Source: an uncultured Acidobacteriota bacterium
GTDB lineage: Bacteria; Acidobacteriota; Vicinamibacteria; Fen-336
Direction of reading: 5' to 3'
Length of the DNA: 64,000 nt
NCBI GenBank assembly: GCA_902826455.1
Contig: CADEEV010000005.1
Coordinates: 2,306-66,305 of the forward strand
Below the pieces are notes generated by a model. That model was not told the origin of the DNA and did not search any database. It was given only the letters and a program-made list of their open reading frames with translations. Both the position numbers and the translations under genes were made by a program. Positions 3,013 through 56,126 of this stretch are shown one piece after another. How positions within the stretch are numbered: the first letter of the stretch is position 1; each line of letters begins with the position of its first letter.

Positions 3013-4742
3013 TCGAAGAGCACGAAGCCGGGGTTCAGCCGGCCATCGGGATCGTAGGTCTTCTTGGCCTTGGCGAACTCCGGCCAGCGGGGACCGAAGT
3101 AGTCGCACCAGCCGGCGGCGTCGAAGTTCACGTAGCCCGAGAGGTAGCGCTTGCCGCCCATGGCGATCGAGAGCTCGCTCGCGGCGTCGAGCTTCGGCTT
3201 GAACTGCTCCCAGAACTTCGGCGGGACGGCCGGCAGGATGCCGAAGCCGATCAGGTACTCCTCGTCCGGCGTCATGAAGTTCTTGACCTCGGATACCGAG
3301 CGGCGCGCGGGCCACAGCAGCACGTGGCCGCCGACGTTCACGCCGGGCGAGAGGTCGGGCAGGATCGCATCCAGGTACTCCGCCGCGGTCGAGTACGGGA
3401 GCACGACCTCCATCCAGGGGTGCAGGTGGTCCCAGGTGCCGAGCTTCTTCCACACGTCGAAGACGGGAACCAGGCGATTCGCGAACTCGTGGGTCGGCAG
3501 GTCGTCGACGTGGAGGTTCTGGTAGGGGCGCAGGCCCTCGAGCAGTCGCTTCTCGTCGGGCTCGTGGCCGGGCTCGAACTCGACCGTGAGGTGGAACGGG
3601 AAGAACCACTTCGCGAAGGGCTGGCGGACGCCGCCCACCCACTTGAGGCCTTGCGGGCACGGAGCGCACCAGGATTCCATGTAGTCCCAGCGACCCGAGT
3701 CCATCGCGATCTTCCCGTCCTCCATGAAGCGGCGGGCGTCGTCGTAGAGAAGGTAGTAGGTGCGCGTCATCGGCTTGGCCCTGCGCAGGCGCAGCCGGGC
3801 CTTGAGGATGATCGCGATCTGGCCGAGGCCCGAGAGCACGCCCCAGAACAGGTCGGCCTTCTCCGTGCGCGAGCAGCGGTGCACGACGCCATCGATCGTC
3901 GCGACCTCGAGCCACTCGACGTTGTCGGTCTGGGCGCCGAACTTGAAGGACGCGACGCCGATGCCCGCGATCGAGAGCGTGCCGCCGACGGCGACGGACA
4001 GGTTGTTCGTGAGCACGGGCGGGATCAGGCCGTGGCGCCAGGTGCGCGCGACGAGATCGCGCCAGAGGACGCCGGGCTCCACCGTGACCTGAGCGGCCTT
4101 CTCGTCCACGTCGAGGATGCGGTCCATCGACTTCATGTCGAGGAGCACGCCACCGCGGTTGATCGCGAGCTGGGACTGCGAGTGGGCGGCGCCGCGCGTC
4201 GAGACCGTGAGGCCGTTCCGGCGGGCGTAGGCGAGGGCCGCGAGCACGTCGTCGGCCGACACCGGCTTCACCACGACCCGGGGACGCCAGTGGTGGATGC
4301 GGCCGAAGTTCGTGACGAACTCGTCGTGGGCCTGGGGGCCGGGGAGCACGACGCCGTCGACCGTCTTGCGCAGCTCCTCGACCTCGGCCGGCGGCAGGCC
4401 TTCGTCGCCGAGGGACGGCACCGGTAATGGGGCCGGGCCGGCCGCCGCCGCAGGCCCGGGCCCGCCCTTCGCGGCGCGCTCCACGGTGTCGCGCAAGCCC
4501 TGCTCGACCTTCGACTTCATGAACGAGAGCGGGGCCTTCAGCGTCGTCGAGACGCGGATCTCGCCGGGCTTCACCTCGATGCGGCCGTCGGCGCCCATGC
4601 CGACGAGGCGGAAGACGTCGCCTTCCCAGTAGCGCTTGATCCGGCCTCCGGGAAGGCGGGTCGCGATCTCCGCGTCGATCGTCGCCTTGACGTCCGCGAC
4701 GGAGCGCGCGGTGGGGACGGAGAACTCGATGTCGGCGGCCAA
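3009..4742 (-). CDS. FAD-linked oxidase (PCMH-type FAD-binding domain) with an N-terminal extension of about 120 aa
   Basis: Conserved FAD-binding region (VVKPVSADDVLAALAYARRNGLTVSTRGAAHSQS, GGTLSIAGIGVASFKFG). The track ORF 3009..5876 is over-extended through citrate synthase. The likely start is TTG 4742, 2 nt after the citrate synthase stop. Its stop overlaps the desaturase stop (CTAG). Confidence 0.7.
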   Translation of the reverse strand: MAADIEFSVPTARSVADVKATIDAEIATRLPGGRIKRYWEGDVFRLVGMGADGRIEVKPGEIRVSTTLKAPLSFMKSKVEQGLRDTVERAAKGGPGPAAAAGPAPLPVPSLGDEGLPPAEVEELRKTVDGVVLPGPQAHDEFVTNFGRIHHWRPRVVVKPVSADDVLAALAYARRNGLTVSTRGAAHSQSQLAINRGGVLLDMKSMDRILDVDEKAAQVTVEPGVLWRDLVARTWRHGLIPPVLTNNLSVAVGGTLSIAGIGVASFKFGAQTDNVEWLEVATIDGVVHRCSRTEKADLFWGVLSGLGQIAIILKARLRLRRAKPMTRTYYLLYDDARRFMEDGKIAMDSGRWDYMESWCAPCPQGLKWVGGVRQPFAKWFFPFHLTVEFEPGHEPDEKRLLEGLRPYQNLHVDDLPTHEFANRLVPVFDVWKKLGTWDHLHPWMEVVLPYSTAAEYLDAILPDLSPGVNVGGHVLLWPARRSVSEVKNFMTPDEEYLIGFGILPAVPPKFWEQFKPKLDAASELSIAMGGKRYLSGYVNFDAAGWCDYFGPRWPEFAKAKKTYDPDGRLNPGFVLFD

Positions 4743-7590: not shown

Positions 7591-8712
7591 CAGGGTCTCC
7601 ATGGCGCGGGTGTACTGCGGCCGATCGTATCGCATCGCGGCGCGGGCCCGGCCGGCAGCCGCCAGGCGTGCGCGCAGATCCGGGTCCTCGAGAAGGCGCA
7701 CGACCGCCGCCGCGAGGGATGCCGGGTCGCCGGTGCGGAAGTGCAGCCCCGAAGCGCCGTCCTCGACGATCTCGGCGGGACCGCCGGAGTCGGAGACGAC
7801 GACCGCGACACCCAGGGCCATCGCCTCGACGACCACGAGCCCGAAGGGCTCCCGAACGGAGGGGCACACGACGACGTCGCACGCCGCCATCACGGCGGCC
7901 ACGTCGGGCACGAAGCCGGTGACGCGCACGGCGCCCTCGAGGCCAAGCGTCTTTCGCAGCGCCAGCACCCGGTCGCGAAGACGCCCCACGTGAGGCAGCA
8001 CGGCCGCGTTGAGGGCTCCGCCCACGATCGCGAGCTCGGCGTCGGGCCGGCGCGCGCGCACCTGCTGCGCCGCGCGGAGGAACGTGTCGTGGCCCTTCAT
8101 CGTGTCGAAGCGGGCGAACATGGCGACCAGGGGCGCACCGCTCGCGACCTGGAGCTGTTCCCGAACCGCGGCGCGCTCCGTCGCGGGCTCGGGCGCCGCG
8201 ATGCCCACGGGCACGACGCTGCAGCGTGGAAGGATCTCGGGGGCCGTGCGGGAGAGCTCCTGGCGCTGCGCCTCGGAGAAGACGACGATGCGGTCGACCC
8301 GCCGGGCGAGCCAGCGGAAGAGGGCGCGCCGCGCGGCGCCGCCGGCGTAGTTCGCCTGGTATAGCAGACGCACGCTCTCGGGCAGGGTCAGGCCGAGGAT
8401 CAGGCCGAGCACGTCGCCCGTCTGGAGCACGCGAACCTGACGCGCCGCGGCGAGCTCGCGGAGCTCGCGCGCGGCTCGCGCGGCCTGCGAGATCACCCAC
8501 GGCAGCGTGAGGTTCCACAGCGACAGGGCCGGAAACGGGATGACGCGGCACTCGACTCCCGCCTCGCGCAGGCGGGCGACGAGGGGCCCGTCGCTCGCGA
8601 CCACCACCAGCGGCGGGAAGCGGGACCGGTCGAGGCCGGCGAGCAGGTGCAGCAGGGCGTTCTCCGCCCCGCCCATCTCCGCGTAGAGGTGGAGGTAGAG
8701 GACGGGCGTCAA
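7573..8712 (-). CDS. Glycosyltransferase family 1 (GT4-like)
   Basis: N-terminus YLHLYAEMGGAENALL and C-terminal GT1 motifs (FVPDVAAVMAACDVVVCPSVREPFGLVVVEAMALGVAVV). The TTG start overlaps the upstream gene's stop (TTGA). Confidence 0.8.
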   Translation of the reverse strand: MTPVLYLHLYAEMGGAENALLHLLAGLDRSRFPPLVVVASDGPLVARLREAGVECRVIPFPALSLWNLTLPWVISQAARAARELRELAAARQVRVLQTGDVLGLILGLTLPESVRLLYQANYAGGAARRALFRWLARRVDRIVVFSEAQRQELSRTAPEILPRCSVVPVGIAAPEPATERAAVREQLQVASGAPLVAMFARFDTMKGHDTFLRAAQQVRARRPDAELAIVGGALNAAVLPHVGRLRDRVLALRKTLGLEGAVRVTGFVPDVAAVMAACDVVVCPSVREPFGLVVVEAMALGVAVVVSDSGGPAEIVEDGASGLHFRTGDPASLAAAVVRLLEDPDLRARLAAAGRARAAMRYDRPQYTRAMETLYASLA

Positions 8713-11222
8713 GCCGAAAGCGCGGCGAGACGCGCCTCGATGCGGGCCGCGAGCTCCCCGATCGCGGGCTCTTCGAACAGCCCCTTGTGGCCGGCTTCGA
8801 CCGTGGCGACGTCGACGCCCCCGGACGTGAGCCGGCGCAGCGCGTGCTCGGCCTCGAGAGCCGGATCGCGCGAGCCGGCCCCCGCGAAGAAGAGCGCGAG
8901 CGGCGCGCGGACCCGGCCGGGTCGATAGCGGCGCAGCGCGAGCCGATGAGCCCGTACCACGGCGGGCTCGCGTGCCGGGAGCGGCGGACCCGGCTCGCGG
9001 CCGCGCAGGCGGTCCCACGCCGCCCGGATCGCGACCCGGGCCCGGTCCCCGACGTGACGCCGCGCGCCCAGGGGCAGCGGCGGCGGATCCAGGAGCACCA
9101 GGAGCTCGACGCCCTCGCCGCTCGCCTCGAGCTGGGTGGCCATTTCCATCGCGACCGCGGCGCCCATGCAGAAGCCGCCGAGGCGGTAGGGTCCATGAGG
9201 CTGGCGGCCCTTGACCGCCGCCACGTAGTGGGCGGCGATCGCGGGGATCTCCGCGAGCGGTGGATCCACTCCGTCGAAGCCCGGCGCCTGGAGGCCGAAG
9301 AAGGGCCGGCCCTCCAGGTGAGACGCGAGCCTGGCGAAGAACAGCACACCGCCGCCGAGGGCGTGCACGAAGAACAGCGGCGCGCCCGCGCCCGTCGCCC
9401 GGAACGGGACGAGCGGCCCCCAGGCCGTTCCGCCGTAGCCCGCGAAGCGGGCCGCGAGCGCGCGGGGCGAGGGCGCCTCGAAGAGCACGCTCGGCGCGAG
9501 CCGGTTGCCGAGAACCACGTCGAGACGCTGCATCAGGGCGACAGCCGTCAAGGAGTCGCCGCCGAGCTCGAAGAAGTCGTCCTCGGGACCCACGGCGGGG
9601 CGCTCGAGGACCCGCGCGAGCTCGAGGGCGATGACGTGGGCCACGTCGACGTGCGCCTCGCGGGCGCGCTCGGGAGCGGCCGACGACGCTGCGCTCGCGG
9701 GCAGATCGAGCCCGAGGAGCTCGTGGAGGCGCCGGCGCTGGACCTTGCCCGTCGTTCCGCGCGGGATCCGGTCGCGCACGAGGATCCGCGAAGGAACCTT
9801 GAACGGAGCCAGGCGCTGGGCCACGAACGCCCGGAGCTCGGCGGGGTCGACAGCGACTCCGGGCCGTGCCACGACGACGGCCGCGAGATCCTCTCCCAGC
9901 CGGGCATGCGGAACCCCGAACGCGGCCGCGGCAGCGACGGCGGGGTGTGCGAGAAGGGCCTCGTCGACCTCCTGCGGCGACACCTTCTCGCCGCCCCGGT
10001 TGATGCGCTCCCGGAGCCGTCCCGTGATCGTCAGGAAGCCGTCCACGTCGAGGACGCCCTCGTCGCCGGTCCTGAGCCAGTCCCCATGGAAGGCGGCCCG
10101 CGTCGCCTCGGGGTCGCCGTCGTACTCCTTCATCACGCGGTGGCTCCGCACGAGCACTTCACCCGCTCGACCCACGTCGAGCGCCGTGCCCGACTCGTCG
10201 GCGATGCGGATCTCGGCGCCGGCGAAGGCGCGGCCGACCGTGCCGAGCCTCCGCGACTCGGGCTCGCGGCGCGCGCTGGCCACGAGCCCCGCCTCCGTGA
10301 GCGCGTAGCCGTCGAGGACCGGCACGCCGAACACCCTCTCGATGCGCTCGAGCTCGGCGGGCTTGAGGAGCGCCGCCGCCGAGCGGATGAGGCGCAGGCG
10401 GCCGGCACGGATCGCGCGCTCCTGGCCGGCGGCGGCATCGACGATCGCCTGGTGGGCCGTGGGACTGCCTCCGAAGAACGTCGGGCGGGCCGCCTCGAAC
10501 CATTCGAAGAACCGCGCCGGATCGAAGCCCGGCGTCACGAAGACCGGCGCGCGCGACGCCAGCGGATAGACGACGGCGTAGTACAGGCCCGCGAGGTGGA
10601 AGGTGGGCGCGAAGCAGAGGCAGGCGTCGTCCGGGGTCAGGGCCAGCAGCTCGACACCCTCGCTGCCGACCTGGCAGAGCTGGGCGTGGGTGAAGGCGAC
10701 ACGGCGGGACTCGGAGGTGGTTCCGGACGTGTGCAGGAGGACGGCGACGTCGTCCATGGCCGGCGCGCGGAGGAGCGCTTCGGATCCGCGCTCGTCGTCC
10801 GCAAAGGCGAACACGCCGGCGCTCTCGCAGGGGACGATCTCGAGGACGGGAATGGCCCGGGCTCGCGCGGCGGCAGCCGCGGGCACCTCGGCCCCGCCCA
10901 GCACCAGCATCGCGCGGGACCCGAGCCGGGAGAGCAGGCGCGTCGCCTCGTCTTCCGGCGTGCCGGCCGGGATCGGCACGACGACGCAGGCGCACGACGA
11001 GGCCAGGAGGGCGACCGCGGCGTCGGCTCCGTCGGGCAGCGCCAGGACCAGACGGTCGCGCGGCCCCAGGCCCTGAGCCGAGAGACGACGGCGCACCGCG
11101 TTCACGTGATCGAGAAGAGCCCTCCAGGTCGTGGTGGATCTCCCCGGCGCAGCGAACGCAGGCGCGTCCGGGAGCGTGCGGGCCGCCTCTTCCAGCAGCG
11201 CGAGGAGCGTCTCGGCGGGCAT
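8709..11222 (-). CDS. Adenylation (AMP-binding) - peptidyl carrier protein - thioesterase tridomain enzyme (NRPS-like / fatty-acyl-AMP-ligase-like loading-release module)
   Basis: AMP-binding cores (LLHTSGTTSES, GRLRERINRGGEKVSPQEVD, PRGTTGKVQRR). Carrier-protein motif GGDSL. C-terminal alpha/beta thioesterase with GGFCMG (a GxCxG motif, i.e. a Cys nucleophile). Confidence 0.85.
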   Translation of the reverse strand: MPAETLLALLEEAARTLPDAPAFAAPGRSTTTWRALLDHVNAVRRRLSAQGLGPRDRLVLALPDGADAAVALLASSCACVVVPIPAGTPEDEATRLLSRLGSRAMLVLGGAEVPAAAAARARAIPVLEIVPCESAGVFAFADDERGSEALLRAPAMDDVAVLLHTSGTTSESRRVAFTHAQLCQVGSEGVELLALTPDDACLCFAPTFHLAGLYYAVVYPLASRAPVFVTPGFDPARFFEWFEAARPTFFGGSPTAHQAIVDAAAGQERAIRAGRLRLIRSAAALLKPAELERIERVFGVPVLDGYALTEAGLVASARREPESRRLGTVGRAFAGAEIRIADESGTALDVGRAGEVLVRSHRVMKEYDGDPEATRAAFHGDWLRTGDEGVLDVDGFLTITGRLRERINRGGEKVSPQEVDEALLAHPAVAAAAAFGVPHARLGEDLAAVVVARPGVAVDPAELRAFVAQRLAPFKVPSRILVRDRIPRGTTGKVQRRRLHELLGLDLPASAASSAAPERAREAHVDVAHVIALELARVLERPAVGPEDDFFELGGDSLTAVALMQRLDVVLGNRLAPSVLFEAPSPRALAARFAGYGGTAWGPLVPFRATGAGAPLFFVHALGGGVLFFARLASHLEGRPFFGLQAPGFDGVDPPLAEIPAIAAHYVAAVKGRQPHGPYRLGGFCMGAAVAMEMATQLEASGEGVELLVLLDPPPLPLGARRHVGDRARVAIRAAWDRLRGREPGPPLPAREPAVVRAHRLALRRYRPGRVRAPLALFFAGAGSRDPALEAEHALRRLTSGGVDVATVEAGHKGLFEEPAIGELAARIEARLAALSA

Positions 11223-11247: not shown

Positions 11248-12681
11248 GTGAGCCCGCTCCTGCGACCCGAGCACGTGCAGCATCTCGTGGCGCAGGGCTA
11301 CGGCACGCTCTCCTTCGGCCTGGGCCGCGGTCTCGCCGGGCGTCTCGCGAGCTTGCATCCCGCACTCGAGGGGGAACGGGACTACCAGGCGTGGCTCGAG
11401 TCCCAGGCCAGCCGTCCCGAGACCCGGCAGCCTTCGACCCATCGACCGCTCGTCAGCGTGCTGATGCCGGTGTTCGACGCGCCCGAGCGGTTCCTGCGCG
11501 AGGCGGTCCGATCGCTGCTCGAGCAGTCGTATGAGGAATGGGAGCTGTGTGCGGTGGACGCGGGGCCGGCCGCCTCTCCGGGCGCACGAGCCCTGGCGGA
11601 GCTGGCCCGGGGCGACCGGCGGATCCGCGTGCTGCCCGTGCCCGAGAACCTCGGAATCGCCGGAAACTCCAACGTCGCGCTGCGGGCGGCGCACGGCGCG
11701 TTCGTGGCGACCTTCGACCAGGACGATCGCCTGCACCCCCAGGCTCTCGCCGCGCTCGTCGCGCGCCTCGAGACGCAGCCCGATCTCGACGTCGTCTATT
11801 CGGACATGGACAACATCACGCCGTGGGGCGATCGCTATGCGCCCTTCTTCAAGCCCGACTGGTCGCCCGAGCTGCTGCTCTCGGCCAACTACCTCGCGCA
11901 CTTCAGCTTGATCCGGCGCTCGGCCGTCGAGCACGCCGGCGGCTTCGACACGGCTCTGAACGGAGCCCAGGACTGGGACCTGCTGCTGCGCGTGACCCAC
12001 GCGAACGCTCGCATCGCCCACGTGCCGGAGGTCCTCTACCACTGGCGCGCGTTGCCCACGTCCTGTGCGTCGAGCCTCGACGCCAAGCCCTACGCCCGCG
12101 AGGCCCAACGACGCGCCGTGCAGGCCCAGCTCGACCGGCGCGGCGTGGCGGCCCGCGCCGAGGTCGCGACGGACGGAACCATGCGCCTCTCGGCGCGGGA
12201 CGGGGCCACCGAGGGCCTCGGCGACGTCGTGATCGTCGCCGACCCGCGCCTGGGGCCGCAGCCGGACGAGACATGGCGAGAACTGGCGCTGTGGGCTTCG
12301 GATCCTGCCATCGGCGCGGCCGGAGCCCTGCTGCGCCGGGCGGACGGCCGCATCGAGAGCGCGGGCTACGTCCAGAGCGAGAGCGCCACGCTGTCGCTTT
12401 TCGCGGGCTCGGCCGGAAAGCGCTGGAGCCCGCTGGGCTGGCCTCAGTGGCTCCGCAACGTGACGGAGCCCGTGCCGCTGGCGTTCGCCATGCGGCGCGA
12501 GCTCCACGAACGGCGCGGAGAGCCAGGAGCGCTCGCGGGACTGAGGTGCGTCACGGTGCCGGCGGCCACGATCGCGTGCCCGCCCGGCGTCAGCGTCGAT
12601 CGAGTGAAGCCCGGCGGCGGAGCCGGGCTCGGCTTCAGCCGGAACCTCGACCCGACCTCGCCGGTGCCCCGGCCGCGCTAG
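11248..12681 (+). CDS. Glycosyltransferase family 2 with a C-terminal extension
   Basis: GT-A signature PLVSVLMPVFDAPERFLREAVRSLLEQSY and DxD-type motif FDQDD. Divergent from the A-PCP-TE gene; only 25 bp separate the two start codons. Confidence 0.75.
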   Translation: MSPLLRPEHVQHLVAQGYGTLSFGLGRGLAGRLASLHPALEGERDYQAWLESQASRPETRQPSTHRPLVSVLMPVFDAPERFLREAVRSLLEQSYEEWELCAVDAGPAASPGARALAELARGDRRIRVLPVPENLGIAGNSNVALRAAHGAFVATFDQDDRLHPQALAALVARLETQPDLDVVYSDMDNITPWGDRYAPFFKPDWSPELLLSANYLAHFSLIRRSAVEHAGGFDTALNGAQDWDLLLRVTHANARIAHVPEVLYHWRALPTSCASSLDAKPYAREAQRRAVQAQLDRRGVAARAEVATDGTMRLSARDGATEGLGDVVIVADPRLGPQPDETWRELALWASDPAIGAAGALLRRADGRIESAGYVQSESATLSLFAGSAGKRWSPLGWPQWLRNVTEPVPLAFAMRRELHERRGEPGALAGLRCVTVPAATIACPPGVSVDRVKPGGGAGLGFSRNLDPTSPVPRPR

Positions 12682-13126
12682 TCCTCGATCTGCTGCGCGA
12701 GGTAGTTCGCGAAGCCGAGCTCCTTGATCTGGTGGAGCTGCGCCTCGAGATAGTCGATGTGCTCCTCTTCGCTCGTGAGGATCTCTTCGAGCAGCGCCCG
12801 CGTGCCGTTGTCGCCCTTCTTCGTGGCGAGGGCGATGCCCTCGTTCAGGCGCTTCACGGCGTCGTACTCGAGCTGGAGGTCGACCTCGTGCGGTTGCTCT
12901 TCATGTACGTCTGCATGTTGGGGACGCCGTCCACGTACAGGATGCGGTCCATCACGATCTGGGCGTGCTTCATCTCGCCGATGGATTCCTTGTACGTGTA
13001 GTCGGCGAGGCGCTTGTAGCGCCAGTTCTGGAGCATCCGCGCGTGGATGAAATACTGGTTGATCGCCGTGAGCTCGGCGCACAAGACGTCGTTCAGCACC
13101 TGGATGATCTCGGCGTTGCCCTTCAC
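12678..13126 (-). pseudogene. bfr: Bacterioferritin, disrupted by a frameshift plus an apparent deletion of about 9 codons (or a sequencing error)
   Basis: The N-terminal 72 aa (MKGNAEIIQVLNDVLCAELTAINQYFIHARMLQNWRYKRL...EMKHAQIVMDRILYVDGVPNMQ) match Bfr residues 1-72 and end at a stop at 12854. The C-terminal 77 aa (DVHEEQPHEVDLQLEYDAVKRLNEGI...EEEHIDYLEAQL...) match Bfr residues 82-158 in a different frame that ends at 12678. The junction is near 12893-12913. Confidence 0.7.
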
Positions 13127-13185
13127 CACCACACCTCCCGCGTGAGCGGGATTCTAGTCGGAAAGCGGCGCGAGCCGAAGGGAAA

Positions 13186-13347
13186 CTAGCGCTTCCGGGC
13201 GAGGAAGGCCTTGAGGTCCGGCAGGCAGGCGGTGCAGGTCTGGGCGCAGCCGGTGCGCTTGCCGAGCTCCTCGAGGGTGAGACGATGCTGGTCGAGCTTG
13301 GTCTCGATCTCCTCGAAGCGCATCTCGGCACACTCGCAGCGCGTCAT
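13186..13347 (-). CDS. bfd: Bacterioferritin-associated ferredoxin (Bfd-like [2Fe-2S] domain protein)
   Basis: 53 aa: MTRCECAEMRFEEIE...GCAQTCTACLPDL, with C-x-C...C-x2-C spacing typical of Bfd. It sits immediately upstream of bfr. Track ORF 13186..14319 is over-extended. Confidence 0.75.
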   Translation of the reverse strand: MTRCECAEMRFEEIETKLDQHRLTLEELGKRTGCAQTCTACLPDLKAFLARKR

Positions 13348-13398
13348 GGGCGGCGGAGTGAAGAGCCTCTCGGCGAACGCGGCCATGTCCGGATCATA

Positions 13399-13420
13399 CT
13401 GAACGTGAATTTCAGGTTCA
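13399..13420. promoter_or_regulatory. Inverted repeat (C)TGAAC-N11-GTTCA in the bfd / small-ORF divergent intergenic region; candidate operator
   Basis: ctgaacgtgaatttcaggttca sits in an unusually AT-rich stretch of a 70% GC genome. It matches the Fur consensus only weakly (11/19). Confidence 0.3.
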
Positions 13421-13451
13421 AGTGGTATCGGAAAAAGGGCCGGAATCGGGG

Positions 13452-13460
13452 TGCTAGAAT
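13452..13460 (+). promoter_or_regulatory. Extended -10 promoter element (TGcTAGAAT), 7 nt upstream of the ATG of the 13468 ORF
   Basis: TGnTAnAAT match. No spacing-compatible -35 element. Leaderless-type geometry. Confidence 0.35.
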
Positions 13461-13467
13461 CCCTGCC

Positions 13468-13758
13468 ATGCCCGAGGCGCTCGACGTCACGTGTCCGTGC
13501 TGCGCGGCCCTTCTGAAGATCGACACCGAGACGGGAGCCGTCGTGTGGGTCGACGCGAAGAAGGCGCCGGCCAAGAGCTTCGACGACCTGGTGAGCCGCG
13601 TCCACTCCCAGCGCAGCCTCCTCGACGAGAAGTTCGCGCGCTCGGTCGAGCAGACCAAGAACTCGAAACAGATCCTCGAGAAGAAGTTCGAGGAGGCCCG
13701 GCGGCGCGCCGAAGCCGACCCGACCGGGCGTCCCCCCAATCCCTTCGACAACGAGTAG
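13468..13758 (+). CDS. Hypothetical small protein (96 aa) with an N-terminal CPCC motif and a Lys/Glu-rich C-terminus
   Basis: Hydrophilic, protein-like composition (MPEALDVTCPCCAALLKIDTETGAVVWVDAKKAPAKSF...). The track start at 13285 is over-extended. Confidence 0.5.
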   Translation: MPEALDVTCPCCAALLKIDTETGAVVWVDAKKAPAKSFDDLVSRVHSQRSLLDEKFARSVEQTKNSKQILEKKFEEARRRAEADPTGRPPNPFDNE

Positions 13759-13764
13759 CGGACG

Positions 13765-14286
13765 GTGCTCTCCGTCCGTAGCGGGGCCGTCTGGATCGCT
13801 GGACTCTGGCTGGGCCTGCTGGTGGCCTCTTGGGTGTCGGCCACCTCGAGCTTCCGGGCCGTCGATCGGGTGCTGGGGTCCGAGGCGCCGGCCGAGTTCC
13901 AGAGCCGCCTCTCGGGCGTAGCGCCGACCGAGCGCCGCGTCGTCCTTCGCTATCTGGCCTCGGAGATCAATCGCTGGATGTTCCGGCGCTGGGCTCTCTT
14001 CCAGGTTGTGCTGGCCCTGATCCTCGTGGCCCTCGCATGGAGCGCCGGCGTCTCGGCGCGGATCGTGGCCGCCCTCGCCCTCCTCATCGTCCTCACCCAG
14101 ACGTTCGCCCTCGGTCCCGGCATCGAGGCCTTCGGCCGCTCCCTGGACTTCCTGCCGCGTCCCCTGGCGCCCGACGTGGCCCGGCGCTTCGGCCTGTGGC
14201 ACGGCGGGTTCCTCGTCCTCGATCTCGCGAAGGCCCTGCTGCTGATCTCGTCGGCCTGGCTGCTCGGCCGCCGTTCGCTGCCCTAG
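13765..14286 (+). CDS. Hypothetical integral membrane protein (3-4 TM helices)
   Basis: Hydrophobic helices (AVWIAGLWLGLLVASWVSA; ALFQVVLALILVALAWSAGV...). GTG start. Tightly linked to the downstream GT2 (TAGaGTG). Confidence 0.55.
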   Translation: MLSVRSGAVWIAGLWLGLLVASWVSATSSFRAVDRVLGSEAPAEFQSRLSGVAPTERRVVLRYLASEINRWMFRRWALFQVVLALILVALAWSAGVSARIVAALALLIVLTQTFALGPGIEAFGRSLDFLPRPLAPDVARRFGLWHGGFLVLDLAKALLLISSAWLLGRRSLP

Positions 14287-14287
14287 A

Positions 14288-15280
14288 GTGGCGCCGCTCT
14301 CGATCCTCATCCCGGTCAAGGACGGCGCGGCCTACCTCCGAAAGACGCTCCCCGCCCTGGCGGTCGGCCTCGAGCCCGGCGACGAGGTCCTGGTCAGCGA
14401 CGACGGCTCGAGGGACGACGCCGCAGCGGTCGCCGCCGCTCACGGGGCGCGCTTCCTGCCACATGCGGAGAACACCGGGCCGGCAGGCGCACGCAATCGC
14501 GCAGCGCGAGTCGCCCGCTCTGCGCTGCTGGTCTTCCTCGATGCGGACGTTCGTGTGCACGCCGAGACTCTGCATCGGCTGCGGCACGCCCTCGACGATG
14601 CGTCCCTGGTGGCAGCCTTCGGCTCCTACGACGCGCGACCGGAGGCGGGGGCATGGGTCAGCGTCTACAAGAATCTCGCCCACCACTTCGTCCACCAACG
14701 TTCCGGCGGTGAGGCGTCCACGTTCTGGGCCGGCTGCGGCGTGATTCGCGCGGACGTCTTCCGAGATCTCGGGGGCTTCGACGAAGGCTACCGGAGGCCC
14801 TCGATCGAAGACGTGGAGCTCGGCTACCGGCTGCGCGCGGCCGGCCATCGCATCCGGCTGCTTCCCGAGATCCAGGTCACCCATCTCAAGGAATGGTCGC
14901 TTGGGAGCTGGCTGCGCGCGGACCTCGTCGACCGCGCGATCCCCTGGGCGCGACTCCTGGCCGAAGGTCGCGGCCTGCCGCGGGATCTCAACTTCACGCG
15001 TCGCGACCGGCTCGCCTCGGGTCTCGTGGCGCTCGGGCTCGGCGCCCTCGCCGCCAGTCTCCTCTGGCCGGCGGCGGCGATCGCGGCCGGCGGCGCCTGG
15101 CTCGTGGCCGTGGCCCTCGACGCGCCGTTCCTGCTCTTCTGCGCACGCCACGAATCAGTGGCCTTCGCCCTGGCCGCGGCGGCCTTCCAGCTCCTGCATC
15201 GGGCAGCCGGCCTCGTCGGCCTCGCGATCGGGCTGGTGACGCCGCGGGCGCGGGTTGCCACCGCGGGGCCCTCCACCTAA
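14288..15280 (+). CDS. GT2 glycosyltransferase with C-terminal TM helices (polyprenyl-phosphate sugar transferase-like, GtrB/ArnC-type architecture)
   Basis: LSILIPVKDGAAYLRKTL, VSDDGSRDD and FLDADV motifs, with two C-terminal hydrophobic helices. Confidence 0.8.
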   Translation: MAPLSILIPVKDGAAYLRKTLPALAVGLEPGDEVLVSDDGSRDDAAAVAAAHGARFLPHAENTGPAGARNRAARVARSALLVFLDADVRVHAETLHRLRHALDDASLVAAFGSYDARPEAGAWVSVYKNLAHHFVHQRSGGEASTFWAGCGVIRADVFRDLGGFDEGYRRPSIEDVELGYRLRAAGHRIRLLPEIQVTHLKEWSLGSWLRADLVDRAIPWARLLAEGRGLPRDLNFTRRDRLASGLVALGLGALAASLLWPAAAIAAGGAWLVAVALDAPFLLFCARHESVAFALAAAAFQLLHRAAGLVGLAIGLVTPRARVATAGPST

Positions 15281-15319
15281 GATCGCTCGGGGGCCGCATC
15301 ACCCGAGGAGGTCGCAAGA

Positions 15320-15805
15320 ATGAAGCGCCGAAGCGTTCTCGTCTCCGTTCTCACCCTGCTGGCGATCCCGGCACTGGCCCATGCCGCTCCGCGCGGCGAG
15401 GCCAAGGCCGTCGTTGCCGGCAAGACCGTCTCGATCGACTACGGCCGGCCCAGCCTGCAGGGTCGCGACATGCTCGGGCGCGCGACGCCGGGCGAGCCGT
15501 GGCGCATGGGCGCCGACGCGGCCACGGTGCTCACGAGCGACGCGGAGCTGACCTTCGGGACCACGGTCGTGCCCAAGGGCTCGTACACCCTGACCGCCAC
15601 CAAGGACGACAAGGGCGGCTGGACGCTGAACATCCGCGACAAGGCCGACAAGACGAAGGTCGTGGCCGACGCCCCGCTCGCCGCCTCGACCGTCAAGGAC
15701 AGCGTCGAGATGTTCACGATCGACCTCAAGGGCGAAAAGAACAAGGGCACCCTCACGATGACGTGGGGCACCGCCGCCTTCACGACGAGCTTCACCGCGA
15801 AGTAG
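15320..15805 (+). CDS. Secreted DUF2911-family protein
   Basis: Signal peptide MKRRSVLVSVLTLLAIPALAHA and DUF2911-like core (KTVSIDYGRPSLQGRDMLG...GEPWRMGADAATVLTSD). Strong SD GAGGAGG. Confidence 0.7.
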   Translation: MKRRSVLVSVLTLLAIPALAHAAPRGEAKAVVAGKTVSIDYGRPSLQGRDMLGRATPGEPWRMGADAATVLTSDAELTFGTTVVPKGSYTLTATKDDKGGWTLNIRDKADKTKVVADAPLAASTVKDSVEMFTIDLKGEKNKGTLTMTWGTAAFTTSFTAK

Positions 15806-15811
15806 CCGTCC

Positions 15812-15831
15812 CGGGCGCCGCCAGGCGCCCG
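15812..15831. terminator. Perfect 8-bp GC hairpin (CGGGCGCC-GCCA-GGCGCCCG) between the convergent DUF2911 and dedA genes
   Basis: The stem-loop is seen directly in the sequence. There is no U-tract, so intrinsic-terminator function is uncertain. Confidence 0.35.
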
Positions 15832-15838
15832 CGATCCC

Positions 15839-16537
15839 TCAGCGGGCCTCTCCGCCGCTGCCCGCTGGGGGGTTCGATCGCTCCTTGTAGACGGTCCAGG
15901 CGATCGGCAGCACCGACAGGAAGACGATGCCGAGGGCGATCTTGTCGATGTTGCGGGCGAGATCGAAGCCCGGCCACACGCGCTGCAGGACCGGTGGCAG
16001 GAAATAGCCGGCCAGCAGCATGCTCCACACCCACGTGAAGGCGCCGATGACGTTGTAGGGCAGGAACGTGCGCAGCGGCATCTTGATGACGCCCGCCACG
16101 ATCGGCGCGAAGGTCCGCACGATCGGCACCCAGCGCCCGGCCACGATGAAGAACGTGCCCCACCGGCCGTAGAAGTCCTCGGTCTTCTTGAGGTACGCCT
16201 GCTTGAAGATGGGGATGCCGAGGACGCTGACGTCGCGCCAGGAGTAGAGGGCGCGGCCGAACCAGGTGCCGATCCAGTACCCCACCTGGTCGCCGACGAT
16301 CGCGCAGACGGGCACGAGGGCGAGCATGGTGCTGAGCGGCAACAGGGGGCGGCCGTCCGCCCCTGGCGTCGCCGCGAAGATCCCGCACAAGACCAGCAGC
16401 GAGTCGCCGGGCAGCAGGGCGAAGAAGCCCGTCTCGGCGAAGATGATCAGACAGATGGCCGGGAGGCCACCTGCCTGGATGAGCCACTGGATGCCCTCCG
16501 GCTTCAGCAGCCAGAGCAGCTTGTGGACGAGCTCCAC
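15839..16537 (-). CDS. DedA-family (VTT/SNARE-associated domain) membrane protein
   Basis: Typical DedA core (LLPGDSLLVLCGIFAA; FIVAGRWVPIVRTFAPIVAGV). Confidence 0.85.
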   Translation of the reverse strand: MELVHKLLWLLKPEGIQWLIQAGGLPAICLIIFAETGFFALLPGDSLLVLCGIFAATPGADGRPLLPLSTMLALVPVCAIVGDQVGYWIGTWFGRALYSWRDVSVLGIPIFKQAYLKKTEDFYGRWGTFFIVAGRWVPIVRTFAPIVAGVIKMPLRTFLPYNVIGAFTWVWSMLLAGYFLPPVLQRVWPGFDLARNIDKIALGIVFLSVLPIAWTVYKERSNPPAGSGGEAR

Positions 16538-16550
16538 GCGAGATCAGTCG

Positions 16551-18713
16551 CTACAGGATGAACAGCGGTGCGAGCACCAGCGTGATGGTCGAGAGCAGCT
16601 TGATCAGCACGTGCAGCGACGGACCGGCCGTGTCCTTGAAGGGGTCGCCCACGGTATCGCCGACGACCGCGGCCTTGTGGGGCTCGGACTTCTTCCCCAC
16701 CACGACGCCGTCCACCTTGAACTCGCCGGACTCGATGTACTTCTTCGCGTTGTCCCAGGCGCCGCCGGCGTTGTTCAGGAACATGGCCATCAGGATGCCC
16801 GTGATCGTGCCGACCATCAGCATGGCCGCCACCGCCTCCGCGCCGATCTGGCCGTGGGGCGACAGGTAGCGGAAGCTGAAGCCGACCGCGATGGGAGCCA
16901 GCACGGCCAGCAGTCCCGGCAGCACCATCTCGCGCAGCGCGGCGACGGTCACGATGTCGACGCAGCGGGCGTAGTTCGGCTTGGACGTCCCGGCCATGAT
17001 GCCCGGGTTCTCGCGGAACTGCCGGCGCACCTCGGTGATGACGACCTGGGCCGCCTTGCCGACGGCCTTGATCGCGAGCGAGCTGAAGACGAAGACGAGC
17101 GTCGCGCCCAGCAGGCCGCCGATGAACACCGGGACACGCGTGAGATCGACGGCCATGTGCTGGCCGGTGATCTTCCGCACTTCGTCGAGGTAGGCGCTGA
17201 AGAGCAGGAACGCAGCGAGCGCGGCGGAGCCGATCGCGTAGCCCTTGGTGACGGCCTTGGTCGTGTTGCCGACCGAGTCCAGGCGGTCGGTCTTGTGGCG
17301 GATCGCCTCGGGCTGCTTGGACATCTCGATGATGCCGCCGGCGTTGTCGGTGATCGGGCCGAACGTGTCCATGGCCAGGATGTAGGCGCAGGGCGCGAGC
17401 ATGCCCATGGTGGCGATCGCGGTGCCGTAGAGGCCCGCGCCGGCGACGCCGGCGAGGCCCATCTTGCCGCACCAGTACGACGCCATCAGCGCGACGGAGA
17501 TCACGACCACCGGGGCGGCGGCGCACTCGAGGCCGACGGCGATGCCGCTGATGATGTTGGTGGCCGGGCCGGTCTTCGAGGCCTCGGCGATATCGCGCAC
17601 GGGCCGGTACTTGTACTCCGTGTAGTACTGGGTGATCCACACGAACGCGTAGGCCGTGAGGATGCCGATGACGCCGGCCGCCAGCAGGTAGCCCTGGCGG
17701 ACGACGACGGGCGAGCCCGCGAGAGGCTTGAGGAGCAGGAAGACGCTGGCGGCGAAGCCGGCCATCGCCAGGACGGTGGTGACCAGATAGCCGCGGTTCA
17801 AGCCGTTCATCGGGTCCTCGTCCTCGCGGCAGCTCACCGTGAAGACGCCGACGATCGTGGCCAGCAGGCCGAGCGCGCGGGCGAACAGCGGGAACAGGAT
17901 GCCCCCCATGCCGAAGACCGGGAAGAGCGCGATGCCGAGGATCATGGCACCGACGTTCTCGGCGGCCGTGGACTCGAACAGGTCGGCGCCGCGGCCAGCG
18001 CAGTCGCCCACGTTGTCGCCCACGAGGTCCGCGACGACCGCGGGGTTCCGGGGATCGTCCTCGGGGATGCCGGCTTCGACCTTGCCGACCAGGTCGGCGC
18101 CCACGTCGGCGGCCTTCGTGTAGATACCGCCTCCGAGCTGGGCGAAGAGCGCCACGAAGGAGGCGCCGAAGCCGAAGCCGACGATCTGGAGCGGCACGTG
18201 CTCGTAGTCGTGCATGCCGCCGAAGAGGTAGAAGAGTCCGCCGACGCCGAGGAGGCTCATCGCCACCACGGACAGGCCGGAAACGGCGCCGGCGCGAAGG
18301 GCGGTCTGCAGGGCCTTGTTGAGGCTGGTCATGGCCGCGGCCGCCGTGCGGATGTTGGCGCGGATCGAGACGAACATGCCGATGTAGCCGGCGATGGCCG
18401 AGCACAGGGCGCCGGTCAGGAAGGAGATCGTCACCTTCCATGCCGTACCCTGGCCCATCTCGGCGATGTTCTTCACCTCGCGGTTCCAGAAGTAGAAGCC
18501 GAAGATGGCCCCGGCTGCCACGACCGAGAGCAGGCCGATCGTCTTGTATTGACGTGAGAGGAAGGCCTCAGCACCCTCGCGGATCGCGTCGGAGATCTCG
18601 CGCATTTCCGGCGTGCCGGTGTCCTGGGACAGCACGTGTTTCGCCAGGAACCCCGCCACGACCAGTGACAGGACGCTGATGCCCAGGACGATGGGCAGGA
18701 CGTTCTCAACCAT
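16551..18713 (-). CDS. hppA: Membrane-bound proton-translocating pyrophosphatase (H+-PPase)
   Basis: 720 aa, 15-16 TM helices, GNTTKA-type and DVGADLVGK/DNVGDCAGRGADLFES motifs. The antisense and alternative-frame ORFs 16266..18557 and 16504..18441 are spurious. Confidence 0.95.
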   Translation of the reverse strand: MVENVLPIVLGISVLSLVVAGFLAKHVLSQDTGTPEMREISDAIREGAEAFLSRQYKTIGLLSVVAAGAIFGFYFWNREVKNIAEMGQGTAWKVTISFLTGALCSAIAGYIGMFVSIRANIRTAAAAMTSLNKALQTALRAGAVSGLSVVAMSLLGVGGLFYLFGGMHDYEHVPLQIVGFGFGASFVALFAQLGGGIYTKAADVGADLVGKVEAGIPEDDPRNPAVVADLVGDNVGDCAGRGADLFESTAAENVGAMILGIALFPVFGMGGILFPLFARALGLLATIVGVFTVSCREDEDPMNGLNRGYLVTTVLAMAGFAASVFLLLKPLAGSPVVVRQGYLLAAGVIGILTAYAFVWITQYYTEYKYRPVRDIAEASKTGPATNIISGIAVGLECAAAPVVVISVALMASYWCGKMGLAGVAGAGLYGTAIATMGMLAPCAYILAMDTFGPITDNAGGIIEMSKQPEAIRHKTDRLDSVGNTTKAVTKGYAIGSAALAAFLLFSAYLDEVRKITGQHMAVDLTRVPVFIGGLLGATLVFVFSSLAIKAVGKAAQVVITEVRRQFRENPGIMAGTSKPNYARCVDIVTVAALREMVLPGLLAVLAPIAVGFSFRYLSPHGQIGAEAVAAMLMVGTITGILMAMFLNNAGGAWDNAKKYIESGEFKVDGVVVGKKSEPHKAAVVGDTVGDPFKDTAGPSLHVLIKLLSTITLVLAPLFIL

Positions 18714-18932: not shown

Positions 18933-20129
18933 GTGCGTAGGGTGTTCTTCTGGCTTCACCTGGCTGCGGGCCTCTCGGGGGGCCTCGTGATCCTCGTCCT
19001 CTCGGTCACGGGCGTCCTGCTGGCCTACGAGCGGCAGATCCTGGCGCTCACCGACGACCCGGGACGCTCGACGCCACCGACTCCCGATGCCGCGCCCCTT
19101 CCCCTCGACGTCCTTCTCGAGCGCGCGTCGGCTGCTAGCCCCGGACTCGCTCCTACTGCCGTCACTCTGTCTTCGGACCCCACGGCGCCGGCCATCGTCA
19201 CGCTGGGTCGTGAGGACACCGCCTACGTCGACGCCTACACCGGCATCGTGGTCGGACAGGGCTCCCGGCGGGCCCGCGCGTTCTTCCACGGCGTCGAGGA
19301 CTGGCATCGCTGGCTCGCGGCTGAAGGGCCGGCGCGCGCCACCGGCCGCGCGATCACCGGGGCCTCGAACCTCGCCTTCCTCTTCCTGGTGCTTTCCGGC
19401 GCCTACCTCTGGTGGCCGCGCAAGCGCACCTGGAAGCACGTCCGGACCGTGACCCTGTTCCAGGGCGGACTGCAGGGGCGTGCGCGGGACTTCAACTGGC
19501 ACAACGTGGCGGGCTTCTGGACGGCCGTGCCGCTGGCGCTGATCGTGGCCACGGGCGTCGTGATGTCCTATCCCTGGGCCAACGACCTGCTCTATCGCCT
19601 GGCCGGGAGCGAGCCTCCACCCCCGCGGCCCCCGGCCGGCCCTGGGGGACCGCCTCGTGAGGGCTCGGCCCGGTCGGCCTTCGCGGCCCCCAGGGGACTC
19701 GACGAGACGCGCTCGGCCGCGACCGCCCAGGTGCCCGACTGGCGCACCCTCTCCGTGCGGCTGCCATCGTCGCCCACGGCGCCTCTCGTCGTCCTGATCG
19801 ACCGCAGCGCCGGGGCCGCCCGGCCCGACCTGCGCTCGTCGCTCACCTTGGACGCGGCCACGGGCACAGTGCAGCGCTACGAGACCTACGAGAGCCAGAG
19901 CCTGGGCCGGCGGCTGCGCACGTGGGCACGCTGGACGCACACCGGCGAAGCGGCGGGCGTGCTCGGCCAGACCCTCGCCGCCGTCGCGTCCGCCGCAGGC
20001 GCGCTCCTCGTCTGGACGGGTCTGGCGCTGGCGTGGCGTCGCTTCCGCGCCTGGCGCTTCGGACCCGCCAAGGACTCCTCTCCCGCATCCGGGAAAGCCC
20101 CTTCGAACTCATTGGAGGTCACGTCGTGA
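18933..20129 (+). CDS. PepSY-associated TM helix domain protein (PiuB-like)
   Basis: N-terminal TM helix (WLHLAAGLSGGLVILVLSVTGVLLAYERQIL) and repeated TM/PepSY_TM organisation (LFLVLSGAYLWWPRKR...). Often encoded next to TonB-dependent siderophore receptors. Confidence 0.8.
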   Translation: MRRVFFWLHLAAGLSGGLVILVLSVTGVLLAYERQILALTDDPGRSTPPTPDAAPLPLDVLLERASAASPGLAPTAVTLSSDPTAPAIVTLGREDTAYVDAYTGIVVGQGSRRARAFFHGVEDWHRWLAAEGPARATGRAITGASNLAFLFLVLSGAYLWWPRKRTWKHVRTVTLFQGGLQGRARDFNWHNVAGFWTAVPLALIVATGVVMSYPWANDLLYRLAGSEPPPPRPPAGPGGPPREGSARSAFAAPRGLDETRSAATAQVPDWRTLSVRLPSSPTAPLVVLIDRSAGAARPDLRSSLTLDAATGTVQRYETYESQSLGRRLRTWARWTHTGEAAGVLGQTLAAVASAAGALLVWTGLALAWRRFRAWRFGPAKDSSPASGKAPSNSLEVTS

Positions 20130-22525
20130 AGAAGATTCGAGTGAGACACAGTCGCAAGCCACGCTGGGTCGCGGCGAGCGCCATCGGCGCCATGGCCACC
20201 TACGCCGCCCTGGGCACGCACTTCACGGCGACGGCGACCGCCGCCGACCTCTCGGACCCCGTTCCGGACCCGGCCGGCCAGTCCCAGCGCCCCGTGCGGC
20301 GCTTCGACATTCCGGCCGGCCCCCTGGACGCCGCCATCGCCGCGTTCCAGAACCTCACCGGAGTCAAGGTCCTGGCCCTGGCGCCGTCGGAGACGCTCCA
20401 CGCTCTCCAGTCTCCGGGAGCGGTCGGGGACTTCACGCCGGAGCAAGCCCTGGGCAAGCTGCTGTCGGGGACCGGCGTCCGGTCCCGGTTCGGCGGCGAC
20501 GACTCCGTGACCCTCGAGCTGCGCCCGCGCAGCGAATCCGTCGTCGTGACGGCCAGCATCGCGTCGACGTCGCTCAAATACTCCGAGCCGCTCCGGGACA
20601 CGCCGCAGACGATCGCGGTGATCCCGCGGGCAGTGATCGAGGACCAGGGCGCCACCACGCTGCGCGACGTGCTCCAGAACGTCCCGGGCCTGACGATCCA
20701 GGCCGGCGAGGGCGGCACGCCCGCCGGCGACAACCTCACCCTGCGCGGATTCAGCGCGCGCAACGACATCTTCGTGGATGGGGTCCGCGATCTGGGTCCG
20801 CAGTCCCGGGACCCGTTCAACCTCGAACAGGTCGAGGTGGCGAAGGGACCCCAGTCCGCGTACTACGGCCGCGGCTCGACGGGCGGGACGATCAACCTCG
20901 TCAGCAAAGGGCCGGTGCTGGCGCCGGAGTACGGAGTGACCCTGGCGGCCGGCACCGACTCGACGCTGCGGGCGACGGCCGACGTGAACCGCCAGATCGG
21001 CGAGAGCGCCGCCTTCCGGCTCAACGTGATGGGCCACAACGCCGACGTGGCGGGCCGCGACGTCGTCGAGAACCAGCGCTGGGGGTTCGCGCCCTCTCTG
21101 GCCTGGGGCCTCGGCACCCGTACGCGGTTCACCGTGAGCTACTTCCACCTGAGCCAGGACAACATCTCCGACTACGGCATCCCCTGGGTGCCCGCGGCCA
21201 ACAACGTGCTCGTCGACCACCGCGATCGGCCGGCTCCCGTGCCTCGCGACACGTTCTACGGTTTCGCAGCCCGCGACCACGAGGACCTGGACTCCGACCT
21301 GGGCACCGTGCGCTTCGAGCGGGACTGGAGCGATCGCCTGCGGATGCGAAGCCAGCTTCGCTACGGTCAATCGAGCCGCGACTCGATCGCGACGCCGCCC
21401 CGCTTCGCCAGCAACGACTCGACCGTCATCAACCGCGAGCTGCGCTCGTGGATCACCGAGGACGACGTCTGGAGCCTCCAGAACGACCTGACCCTGCGCT
21501 TCGACACGGGCGCCCTCGCCCACGCGCTCGTCGCCGGCCTCGAGCTCTCCCACGAAGCCAACCTGCGCACGGTGCGGACCGCGCCCAACTCCCCGACGAC
21601 GCTCCTCGACCCCAACCCGGACGACGTATACCCGGGCGTGATCACGGTCAGCCCCAACATCGGGGACGTGACGGGCAAGTCCGCGGCCGCCTATGCCTTC
21701 GATACCGTGAACCTGGGCTCTCGATGGGAGCTCACCGCCGGCCTTCGCTACGACTACTTCGACGTCGACGGCATCACCACCGTGCCGGCGCCGGTCTCAC
21801 GGGTCGATCGGATGTTGAGCGGGCGCGCTGGCCTCGTCTTCAAGCCGCGCCCCAACGGCAGCGTCTACGCCTCCTACGGAACGTCGCTCAACCCGTCTCT
21901 CGAAGGCCTGTCCTACAGCACGGCCAACACCCAGATCGATCCGGAGAAGACCCGCTCCTTCGAGGTCGGCACCAAGTGGGACTTCGCCCAGGAGCGCATG
22001 GCCCTCACCGCGGCCCTGTTCCGCGTCGACAAGACGAACGCCCGCACGCCGGGCCTCACGCCCGACGATCCGCCCCAGGTTCTCGCCGGAGAGCAGCGCG
22101 TGGACGGCGTGGAGCTCGGCGCGACGGGCGCCCTGACGTCGGCCTGGAACGTATTCGCCGCCTACACGCGCCTCGACAGCGAGATCCGCGAGTCCAACAC
22201 GCCTGCCGAGGTGGGCAAGCGGCTCATCAACACGCCCGGCGACTCCCTCAGCTTCTGGACGACCTATGCCTTCCCGGGTCGCATCCAGCTCGGCGGCGGC
22301 GCGCGCTACATCGGCAAGCGCTTCGGCAACACGAGCAACACGCGCTTCGTCGGCAGCTACTGGCTGCTCGATGCGATGGCCTCGGCCCGCGTGAGCCGCA
22401 AGCTCAGCCTCCGCCTCAACGTCTACAACCTCGGCGACAAGGAGTACTTCGACCGGCTGGGTGGCGGCCACCTCGTCCCCGGCACCGCGCGCTCGGCCGT
22501 GCTCAGCACCTCGATCGACTTCTAG
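20126..22525 (+). CDS. TonB-dependent siderophore-type receptor with an N-terminal STN (transducer/signalling) domain
   Basis: GTG start overlapping the upstream stop (GTGA); SD GGAGG; signal peptide. STN-like segment [23 protein letters not shown]. Plug and barrel motifs, C-terminal ...[14 protein letters not shown] and terminal F. Confidence 0.9.
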
Positions 22526-22534
22526 GAGGAAGCG

Positions 22535-23216
22535 CGTGCTGCTCTCGATTCCCGACGTGCTGTCGCCGGAACAGGTCGCCGAGGCGCGTCGAGCCCTCGA
22601 CCGCGCAGCCTGGGTCGACGGCGTGGTCACGGCGGGCCATCAGTCGGCACGCGCCAAGAACAACCAGCAGCTCCCCGAGGACTCCGAGACGGCGCGGCGA
22701 ATCGGGGAGCTGGTGCTGGCGGCGCTGCAGCGCAACCCCGTCTTCATGTCCTCAGCGCTGCCCTTGCGCGTCTTCCCGCCGTTGTTCAACCGCTACAAGG
22801 GCGGGCAGTCGTTCGGTACCCACGTCGACAATGCGATCCGGCAGGTGCCGGGCACGGCCCACCGTGTCCGCACCGACCTCTCGGCGACGCTGTTCCTCAG
22901 CCAGCCCGATGAGTACGACGGCGGGGAACTCGTGGTCGAGGACACGTACGGCGTGCACACCGTCAGACTGCCGGCCGGCAGCCTGATCCTCTATCCGGCC
23001 AGCAGCCTGCACCACGTGAAGCCCGTGACGCGCGGGGCGCGCGTCGCGTCATTCTTCTGGATCCAGAGCATGGTGCGCGACGACGGCGAACGGACGCTGC
23101 TGTTCGACCTCGACATGGCCATCCAGAAGCTCGTCCGTGAGACGCCCGATCACGCCGCGGCGGTGCAGTTGACGGGCGTGTACCACAACCTGCTGAGGCG
23201 CTGGGCCGACCTCTAG
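22535..23216 (+). CDS. piuC: Fe(II)/2-oxoglutarate-dependent PKHD-type hydroxylase (PiuC/YbiX family)
   Basis: Collinear with E. coli YbiX (HIPGVLSP.., [52 protein letters not shown]). SD AGGAGG. Confidence 0.9.
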
Positions 23217-56037: not shown

Positions 56038-56126
56038 GCCGGAGTGGCGAAACTGGCAGACGCGCGGGACTCAAAATCCCGAGACTCGCAAGGGTCGTGT
56101 GGGTTCGATTCCCACCTCCGGCACCA
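56038..56126 (+). tRNA. tRNA-Leu (anticodon CAA)
   Basis: 89 nt. Acceptor stem GCCGGAG/CTCCGGC, D-arm GCG/CGC, anticodon stem CGGGA/TCCCG with loop CTCAAAA, 17-nt variable arm, T-loop TTCGATT, discriminator A plus an encoded CCA. Confidence 0.9.

Follow-up and report, generated by a model that had tools for sequence, protein, structure and literature searches.

Bacterioferritin (Bfr) is a ferritin of 24 subunits that contains haem and serves in the oxidation and storage of iron, while Bfd, a small [2Fe-2S] ferredoxin, helps to release the iron of Bfr; bfd upstream of bfr is the standard arrangement of the two genes. The described systems with which we compared the present locus are the Bfrs of E. 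coli (PDB 1BCF), M. smegmatis (3BKN) and M. tuberculosis (BfrA, 3UOF) and, for the gene pair, the BfrB-Bfd system of P. aeruginosa (complex 4E6K) and the bfd-bfr operon of E. coli. In the 64,000-nt stretch of DNA analysed here (the window), bfd and bfr likewise lie in this order on the same strand, and Bfd carries the same C-x-C...C-x2-C pattern of cysteines. Compared with the solved Bfrs, the window keeps the codons for Met52, E18, E51, H54, E94, E127 and H130, whereas its open reading frame (ORF) is broken: a gap of 22 nt shifts the frame, and a short patch around this gap holds four non-conservative substitutions. An intact allele of the same gene, recovered from a sibling sequencing run, aligns with solved Bfrs free of gaps. 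The locus is an ordinary bfd-bfr pair of an uncultured Acidobacteriota, and everything about it belongs to a known system; the split of bfr has the properties neither of a recoding site nor of an established pseudogene, and most probably it is no genuine feature of the biology.

RESULTS

The bfd-bfr locus and its surroundings

The bfd gene is intact and encodes 66 aa from an ATG at 13386, with bfr directly downstream on the same strand. The first-pass annotation had also regarded bfd as intact, but it placed the gene at 13347-13186; gene calls on related contigs make the upstream start more likely, and an identical 66-aa product is called on a Logan contig from a sibling run (L083, see below). 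Cysteines C4, C6, C38 and C41 (in the numbering of the 53-aa form) supply the C-x-C and C-x2-C halves of the [2Fe-2S] Bfd signature, and the match to Pfam Fer2_BFD extends over residues 4-50 with 26.3 bits (cut-off 26). In comparison with BfrB-Bfd systems, the protein of the window has nothing notable about it: the Pfam score is barely over the cut-off, and the 13-residue N-terminal extension is lineage-specific. The order bfd-bfr is also found in the relatives L001, L002 and L085. A spacer of 56 nt separates the two genes in the window, and bfr starts with GTG.

A promoter-like site precedes bfd (Table 1). One such site was found, against 0.1 expected in shuffles, and its sequence is identical in L001, L083 and L086. 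It is unchanged even in L001, which overall is only 86% identical to the window. Judged from this conservation, the sigma-70-like promoter and the overlapping inverted repeat TGAAATTCACGTTCA may include a conserved operator at which a repressor, iron-responsive or other, acts. In the spacer between the genes, CTTTCCGA-TAGAATC and GGAGGTG are kept in the window, L001 and L002; the roles of the TAGAAT element and of GGGAGG, the putative ribosome-binding site (RBS), are predicted ones.

The GC content of the window is 69.7%. In a GTDB scan with P0001, one of the closest full-length homologues, the 80 loci listed are all from Acidobacteriota metagenome-assembled genomes (MAGs) and reach at most 81% protein identity; the labels of the closest MAGs are Acidobacteriota, Thermoanaerobaculia and Vicinamibacteria. 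The neighbours of bfd-bfr are glycosyltransferases, an A-PCP-TE enzyme and an H+-pyrophosphatase. The A-PCP-TE enzyme (8709-11222, minus strand) is a stand-alone 837-aa protein with AMP-binding, PP-binding and Thioesterase domains, flanked by glycosyltransferases (GT4 and GT2) and an ABC-2 exporter, a combination that suggests a pathway for an acylated glycan or glycolipid. An iron-uptake set lies 6-10 kb from bfd-bfr (18933-23216, plus strand) and comprises a PepSY_TM protein, a PiuC-like 2OG-Fe(II) hydroxylase and a TonB-dependent receptor that begins with an STN domain (FecA-type signalling), all apparently intact. By Rfam and ARAGORN, a tRNA-Leu(CAA) at 56038-56126 (plus strand) is the sole RNA gene of the window.

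Table 1. Coordinates of the elements of the bfd-bfr locus and of the altered positions in bfr (window numbering)
Feature	Position	Strand	Basis or remark
Promoter-like site, TTGAAC, 17 nt, TATGAT	13393..13421	-	upstream of bfd, overlaps inverted repeat TGAAATTCACGTTCA
bfd	13186..13386	-	Pfam Fer2_BFD, gene calls on related contigs
Spacer elements TAGAAT (13156..13151) and putative RBS GGGAGG (13139..13134)	13134..13156	-	sequence reading
bfr N-part, frame A, codons 1-79 (MVKGN...NMQTYMKSN)	12893..13129	-	profile matches; start as in P0157/L086
Anomalous 43-nt patch of bfr	12892..12934	-	sole differences from L086 over 904 window nt
Patch change C>G, L66V	12934	-	window vs ancestral state
Patch change A>C, K74T	12909	-	window vs ancestral state
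Patch change T>G, I78S	12897	-	window vs ancestral state
Patch change A>C, Q87P	12892	-	window vs ancestral state
Frame-A out-of-frame tail RTRSTSSSSTTP, stop 12856..12854	12854..12892	-	ORF reading
bfr C-part, frame B, 70 codons (HEVDLQLE...QQIED) and stop	12678..12890	-	profile matches; protein and DNA identical to P0157/L086

The bfr gene is read in two frames and lacks 22 nt

On the minus strand, bfr is read first in frame A and then in frame B, the -1 frame. Frame A runs MVKGN...GEMKHA...GVPNMQTYMKSN and continues into the out-of-frame tail until its stop; frame B runs HEVDLQLEYDAVKRLNEG...SEEEHIDYLE...QQIED and stops at 12680..12678. The first-pass annotation had described such a frameshift near 12893, with both stops where we find them, and in these respects its description is accurate. 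Both parts are recognised as ferritin by Pfam (Ferritin, positions 2-71 in the N-part and 86-141 in the C-part). The TIGR00754 model for bfr gives 107.6 bits for the N-part (2-75) and 68.5 bits for the C-part (87-155); neither value reaches the cut-off of 125.55, so that the window has no single ORF of ~155-160 aa scoring above this cut-off as a full-length Bfr would.

The N-part takes in helices A and B together with the greater part of the B-C loop, and it carries E18, E51, M52 and H54 (E. coli numbering); the C-part covers helices C-E and carries E94, E127 and H130. The N-part has the haem axial ligand Met52, whose motif GEMKHA aligns with that of the homologues. All six codons for the ferroxidase ligands are also present (in CAELTA, GEMKH, DLQLE and EEEH), as had been pointed out earlier for both these ligands and the haem Met, but they are distributed over frames A and B and do not come together in one chain.

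DNA alignment with the contigs that encode P0001 and P0002 and with L086 showed that exactly 22 nt are missing from the window at 12894/12893. These correspond to codons ~79/80-87, encoding VGKDVKEQ, and the gap falls between ...ATGAAGAGCAA and CCGCACGAGG..., although its placement is ambiguous within ~12899-12893. The junction in the window reads ...ATGAAGAGCAACCGCACGAGG... / ...TACATGAAGAGCAACCGCACGAGG..., and its counterpart in the intact allele reads ...TACATGAAGATCAACGTGGGCAAGGATGTCAAGGAACAGCACGAGG.... When the intact allele is aligned, free of gaps, with solved structures, the lost VGKDVKEQ falls on about residues 79-86 of E. coli Bfr, where the B-C loop ends and helix C begins. The ten closest full-length homologues (P0001-P0010), which are 156-157 aa long and 74-89% identical, read ...GVPNMQKYMKINVGKDVKEQHEVDLQLE... 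in this region.

These alignments change the extent of both parts. The loss had been estimated as ~28 nt, or nine codons corresponding to DLGKLNIGE, and the N-part had been ended at residue 72 (...GVPNMQ); frame A is in fact homologous through TYMKSN, which aligns with KYMKIN of the relatives (about residues 73-78 of E. coli), and thus comprises 79 codons, to 12893. Correspondingly, the homologous C-part starts at HEVDLQLE (12890) and has 70 aa, not the 77 aa by which it had seemed to equal the E. coli half. The stretch DVHEEQP, previously matched to DVEEM of E. coli, resembles it by chance: it is what the nucleotides of the frame-A peptide TYMKSN give when read in frame B.

The C-part has neither a start codon nor an RBS at its homologous beginning. 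In the NCBI record of the 165,673-nt source contig, a separate gene call, P0121, covers a 59-aa C-terminal fragment of bfr (MKRLNEG...QQIED) that starts at V99, after the ligand E94. Through this call (window 12678-12857, minus strand), the lesion has entered the protein databases as a spurious small ferritin-like protein.

Substitutions are clustered around the gap

Changes in the lineage of the window were polarised with L001-L004 as outgroups. Besides the deletion, four substitutions, which the first-pass annotation did not mention, flank the gap within a patch of 43 nt (Table 1). All four are non-synonymous transversions, three of them A>C or T>G; transversions of these two kinds are uncommon in spontaneous mutation and a common class of sequencing error. 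V66, T74, S78 and P87 were each found in 0 of 121 close full-length homologues, and a gap in residues 79-87 was likewise found in none of the 121.

Outside the patch, the lineage has acquired four synonymous changes and K126T, and T126 is present in 12 of the 121 homologues and in the intact allele P0157. Because the changes outside the patch are thus four synonymous ones and one instance of natural variation, this part of bfr appears to be under ordinary purifying selection, and nothing in its sequence points to relaxed selection. A relaxation affecting all of bfr was considered from the count of five non-synonymous versus four synonymous changes and was rejected, as four of the five are confined to the patch and K126T is shared with an intact allele. 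The relaxation expected of a genuine pseudogene was therefore not found.

We also considered whether the patch was templated by gene conversion or template switching, and rejected this because elsewhere in the window only short matches at chance level occur. The best of these is a match of 21/23 nt between 4125..4103 and 12928-12950 (both minus strand; blastn-short E = 0.004), where both sequences encode MDRIL.VD. We judged this match between bfr and an unrelated gene to be due to chance, and it does not account for the substitutions of the patch.

Sibling sequencing runs contain the ancestral sequence

Two Logan contigs of the same strain were compared with the window. L083, from run ERR3089239, was found by exact-product look-up of the 66-aa Bfd. 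Of the 3832 nt compared with window 16760..12929, 3831 agree; the exception is 12934, where L083 has the ancestral C (Leu). The contig breaks off at 12929, the upstream border of the patch. L086, a contig of 926 nt from run ERR3089229, was found via its product P0157, which clusters with P0001 at 90% identity. No mismatch separates L086 from the window in the 481 nt that precede 12934 or in the 380 nt that follow 12892, and between these positions L086 has the ancestral bases and 22 extra nt (...ATGAAGATCAACGTGGGCAAGGATGTCAAGGAACAGCACGAGG...), so that its bfr is intact. P0157 is a Bfr of 157 aa in a single frame, equal to the N- and C-parts of the window except at the patch, and shares T126, E104 and A119 of the window lineage. 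It aligns free of gaps over residues 3-156 with solved Bfrs, with E-values down to 1e-44, as a full-length Bfr should.

Together, L083 and L086 allow 4,249 nt to be compared, and every difference lies inside the 43 nt. The chance that four independent substitutions would all fall in the patch is ~(43/904)^4, or ~5e-6. As all differences are within 43 nt and none is found elsewhere in ~4.2 kb, ordinary accumulation of mutations is ruled out, which leaves a single complex event or an artefact. Moreover, with an intact allele in a sibling assembly of the same strain, the lesion must be an artefact or else an extremely recent change for which the population is variable. Independent data of the same lineage did not reproduce the lesion, L086 being intact and L083 ancestral at 12934.

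Searches for the lesion elsewhere

The deletion junction gave no match in JGI metagenome contigs; since the conserved stretch just downstream, which is common to either allele, also gave none there, this search is uninformative on relatives. Exact records of the truncated 91- and 92-aa products of the N-part were absent from all indexed assemblies, and exact-product look-ups of the 53-aa Bfd, the neighbouring 477-aa GT2 gene and P0121 returned no match. When the last 199 aa of the GT2 neighbour served as a protein query for a Logan contig beyond the break, there was no hit at E <= 1e-30, and a literature search for the run accessions found no match.

Within the 64 kb, a model of GC content by codon position identified an abnormal frame junction in bfr only, the other junctions being gene boundaries. 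Thirty other ORFs of the window give full-length Pfam matches, and no other broken gene was seen.

Short bfr fragments on long contigs of other MAGs were examined as possible cases of recurrent biological splitting, and this was rejected, as they are due to single-base shifts of frame elsewhere in the gene, without loss of residues. The two assemblies concerned are also of Acidobacteriota. In L084 (ENA ERZ25039492 contig_12539, 2208-2674), bfr is split by two such changes, and in L085 (ENA ERZ25039541 contig_162461, 2206-2671) by one. Both splits look like indel errors unrelated to the lesion of the window, from which they differ in that no residues are lost.

DISCUSSION

The split of bfr is probably a local defect of assembly or consensus in this contig and not biology. 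Both sibling-run assemblies are ancestral wherever they cover the patch, and the break of L083 exactly at the patch suggests a problem of coverage or of the assembly graph at this place, although 31-mers shared by coexisting relatives in the conserved bfr could also cause such a break. The residues of the patch and the gap in the loop are foreign to the 121 close homologues; neither the junction, in JGI metagenome contigs, nor the truncated products, in indexed assemblies, turned up elsewhere. Around the lesion, the promoter-like site, the RBS, bfd and all ligand codons are untouched, and the rest of the 64 kb is clean. A plausible mechanism is that a low-coverage gap was closed, or a path threaded, using read ends laden with errors; such joining would lose 22 nt of uncovered bases and would leave mismatches on either side of the join, and the organism itself would encode a normal 157-aa Bfr identical to P0157. 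Apparent pseudogenes that arise from local misassembly or consensus errors in MAGs have the same features, i.e. an isolated lesion in an otherwise accurate contig, mismatches clustered round an indel, a position at the break point of an independent assembly and an intact allele in a sibling sample.

Several observations do not sit easily with an artefact. A deletion of 22 nt is atypical for base-calling errors, short-read assemblers normally need k-mer support, so that some reads may carry the allele of the window, and the source contig is long and elsewhere very accurate. Moreover, the sibling-run contigs may derive from a different sample, and an intact gene there does not prove an intact gene here.

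Alternatively, and in our view rather improbably, the lesion is real and very recent: one complex event occurred in a sub-lineage, whose bfr pseudogene coexists with the intact allele. Candidate causes would be a break mended by error-prone repair, or slippage round a small hairpin from one imperfect repeat (AAGATCAAC) to the other (AAGGAAC). The deposited sequence does carry the lesion, its NCBI record includes the separately called C-terminal fragment, the intact allele has imperfect direct repeats at both ends of the deletion, which give several equal placements of the gap, and assemblers normally output k-mers that are supported by reads. However, a real event would need four transversions and a deletion within 43 nt with zero other differences in ~4.2 kb from two assemblies, the assemblies of the sibling runs being ancestral where they cover the patch, and neither the junction nor the truncated products are found elsewhere. 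A run of changes dominated by A:T>C:G is also unusual among spontaneous bacterial mutations. It is thus unlikely that a single-step complex mutation has just knocked out Bfr in one soil Acidobacteriota sub-lineage while the intact allele persists in sibling samples.

Programmed -1 frameshifting, or another form of recoding that joins the two frames into a functional shortened Bfr, deserves hardly any credence, even though conserved ligands persist in both parts and frame B meets no stop where it crosses the junction. A slippery heptamer X XXY YYZ is absent from frame A of bfr, and between 12940 and the frame-A stop the sole homopolymer of at least 4 nt is one CCCC. The gene has a single frame, with the loop present, in 121 of 121 close homologues, and L001, L002 and L086 are intact, so the frame change is not conserved; even the shifted product would lack ~8 residues and contain three substitutions never seen in these homologues. 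We reject recoding because there is no slippery heptamer, the homologues are single-frame and 22 nt of coding sequence are absent. The first-pass annotation had offered a very recent lesion, a sequencing or assembly error or, as the less likely option, recoding; the intact L086 and the rejection of recoding agree with this ranking and narrow it.

A lineage that naturally has a loop-less or two-chain bacterioferritin is next to inconceivable, as nothing beyond the window itself speaks for it, while residues 79-87 are present in all 121 close homologues, the same-strain allele L086 is intact, and the C-part, lacking a start and an RBS, is called as P0121 only from V99, past E94.

If the lesion were real, the sole plausible product would be a 91-aa fragment consisting of helices A and B and 12 junk residues. 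Such a fragment, if made, would have E18, E51, M52 and H54 but not E94, E127 and H130, and would provide neither a ferroxidase centre nor a subunit of the cage. The strain would then lose iron storage by Bfr and keep bfd, and the window would be a snapshot of a population-variable, very young pseudogene. The split has little biological weight: bfd-bfr pairs are textbook systems, and a lone broken gene in a metagenome-derived genome is commonplace. The locus calls for caution in one respect, in that the apparent bfr pseudogene of this record should not be taken to mean that the organism has lost iron storage, and the 59-aa 'ferritin' P0121 is a by-product of the lesion.
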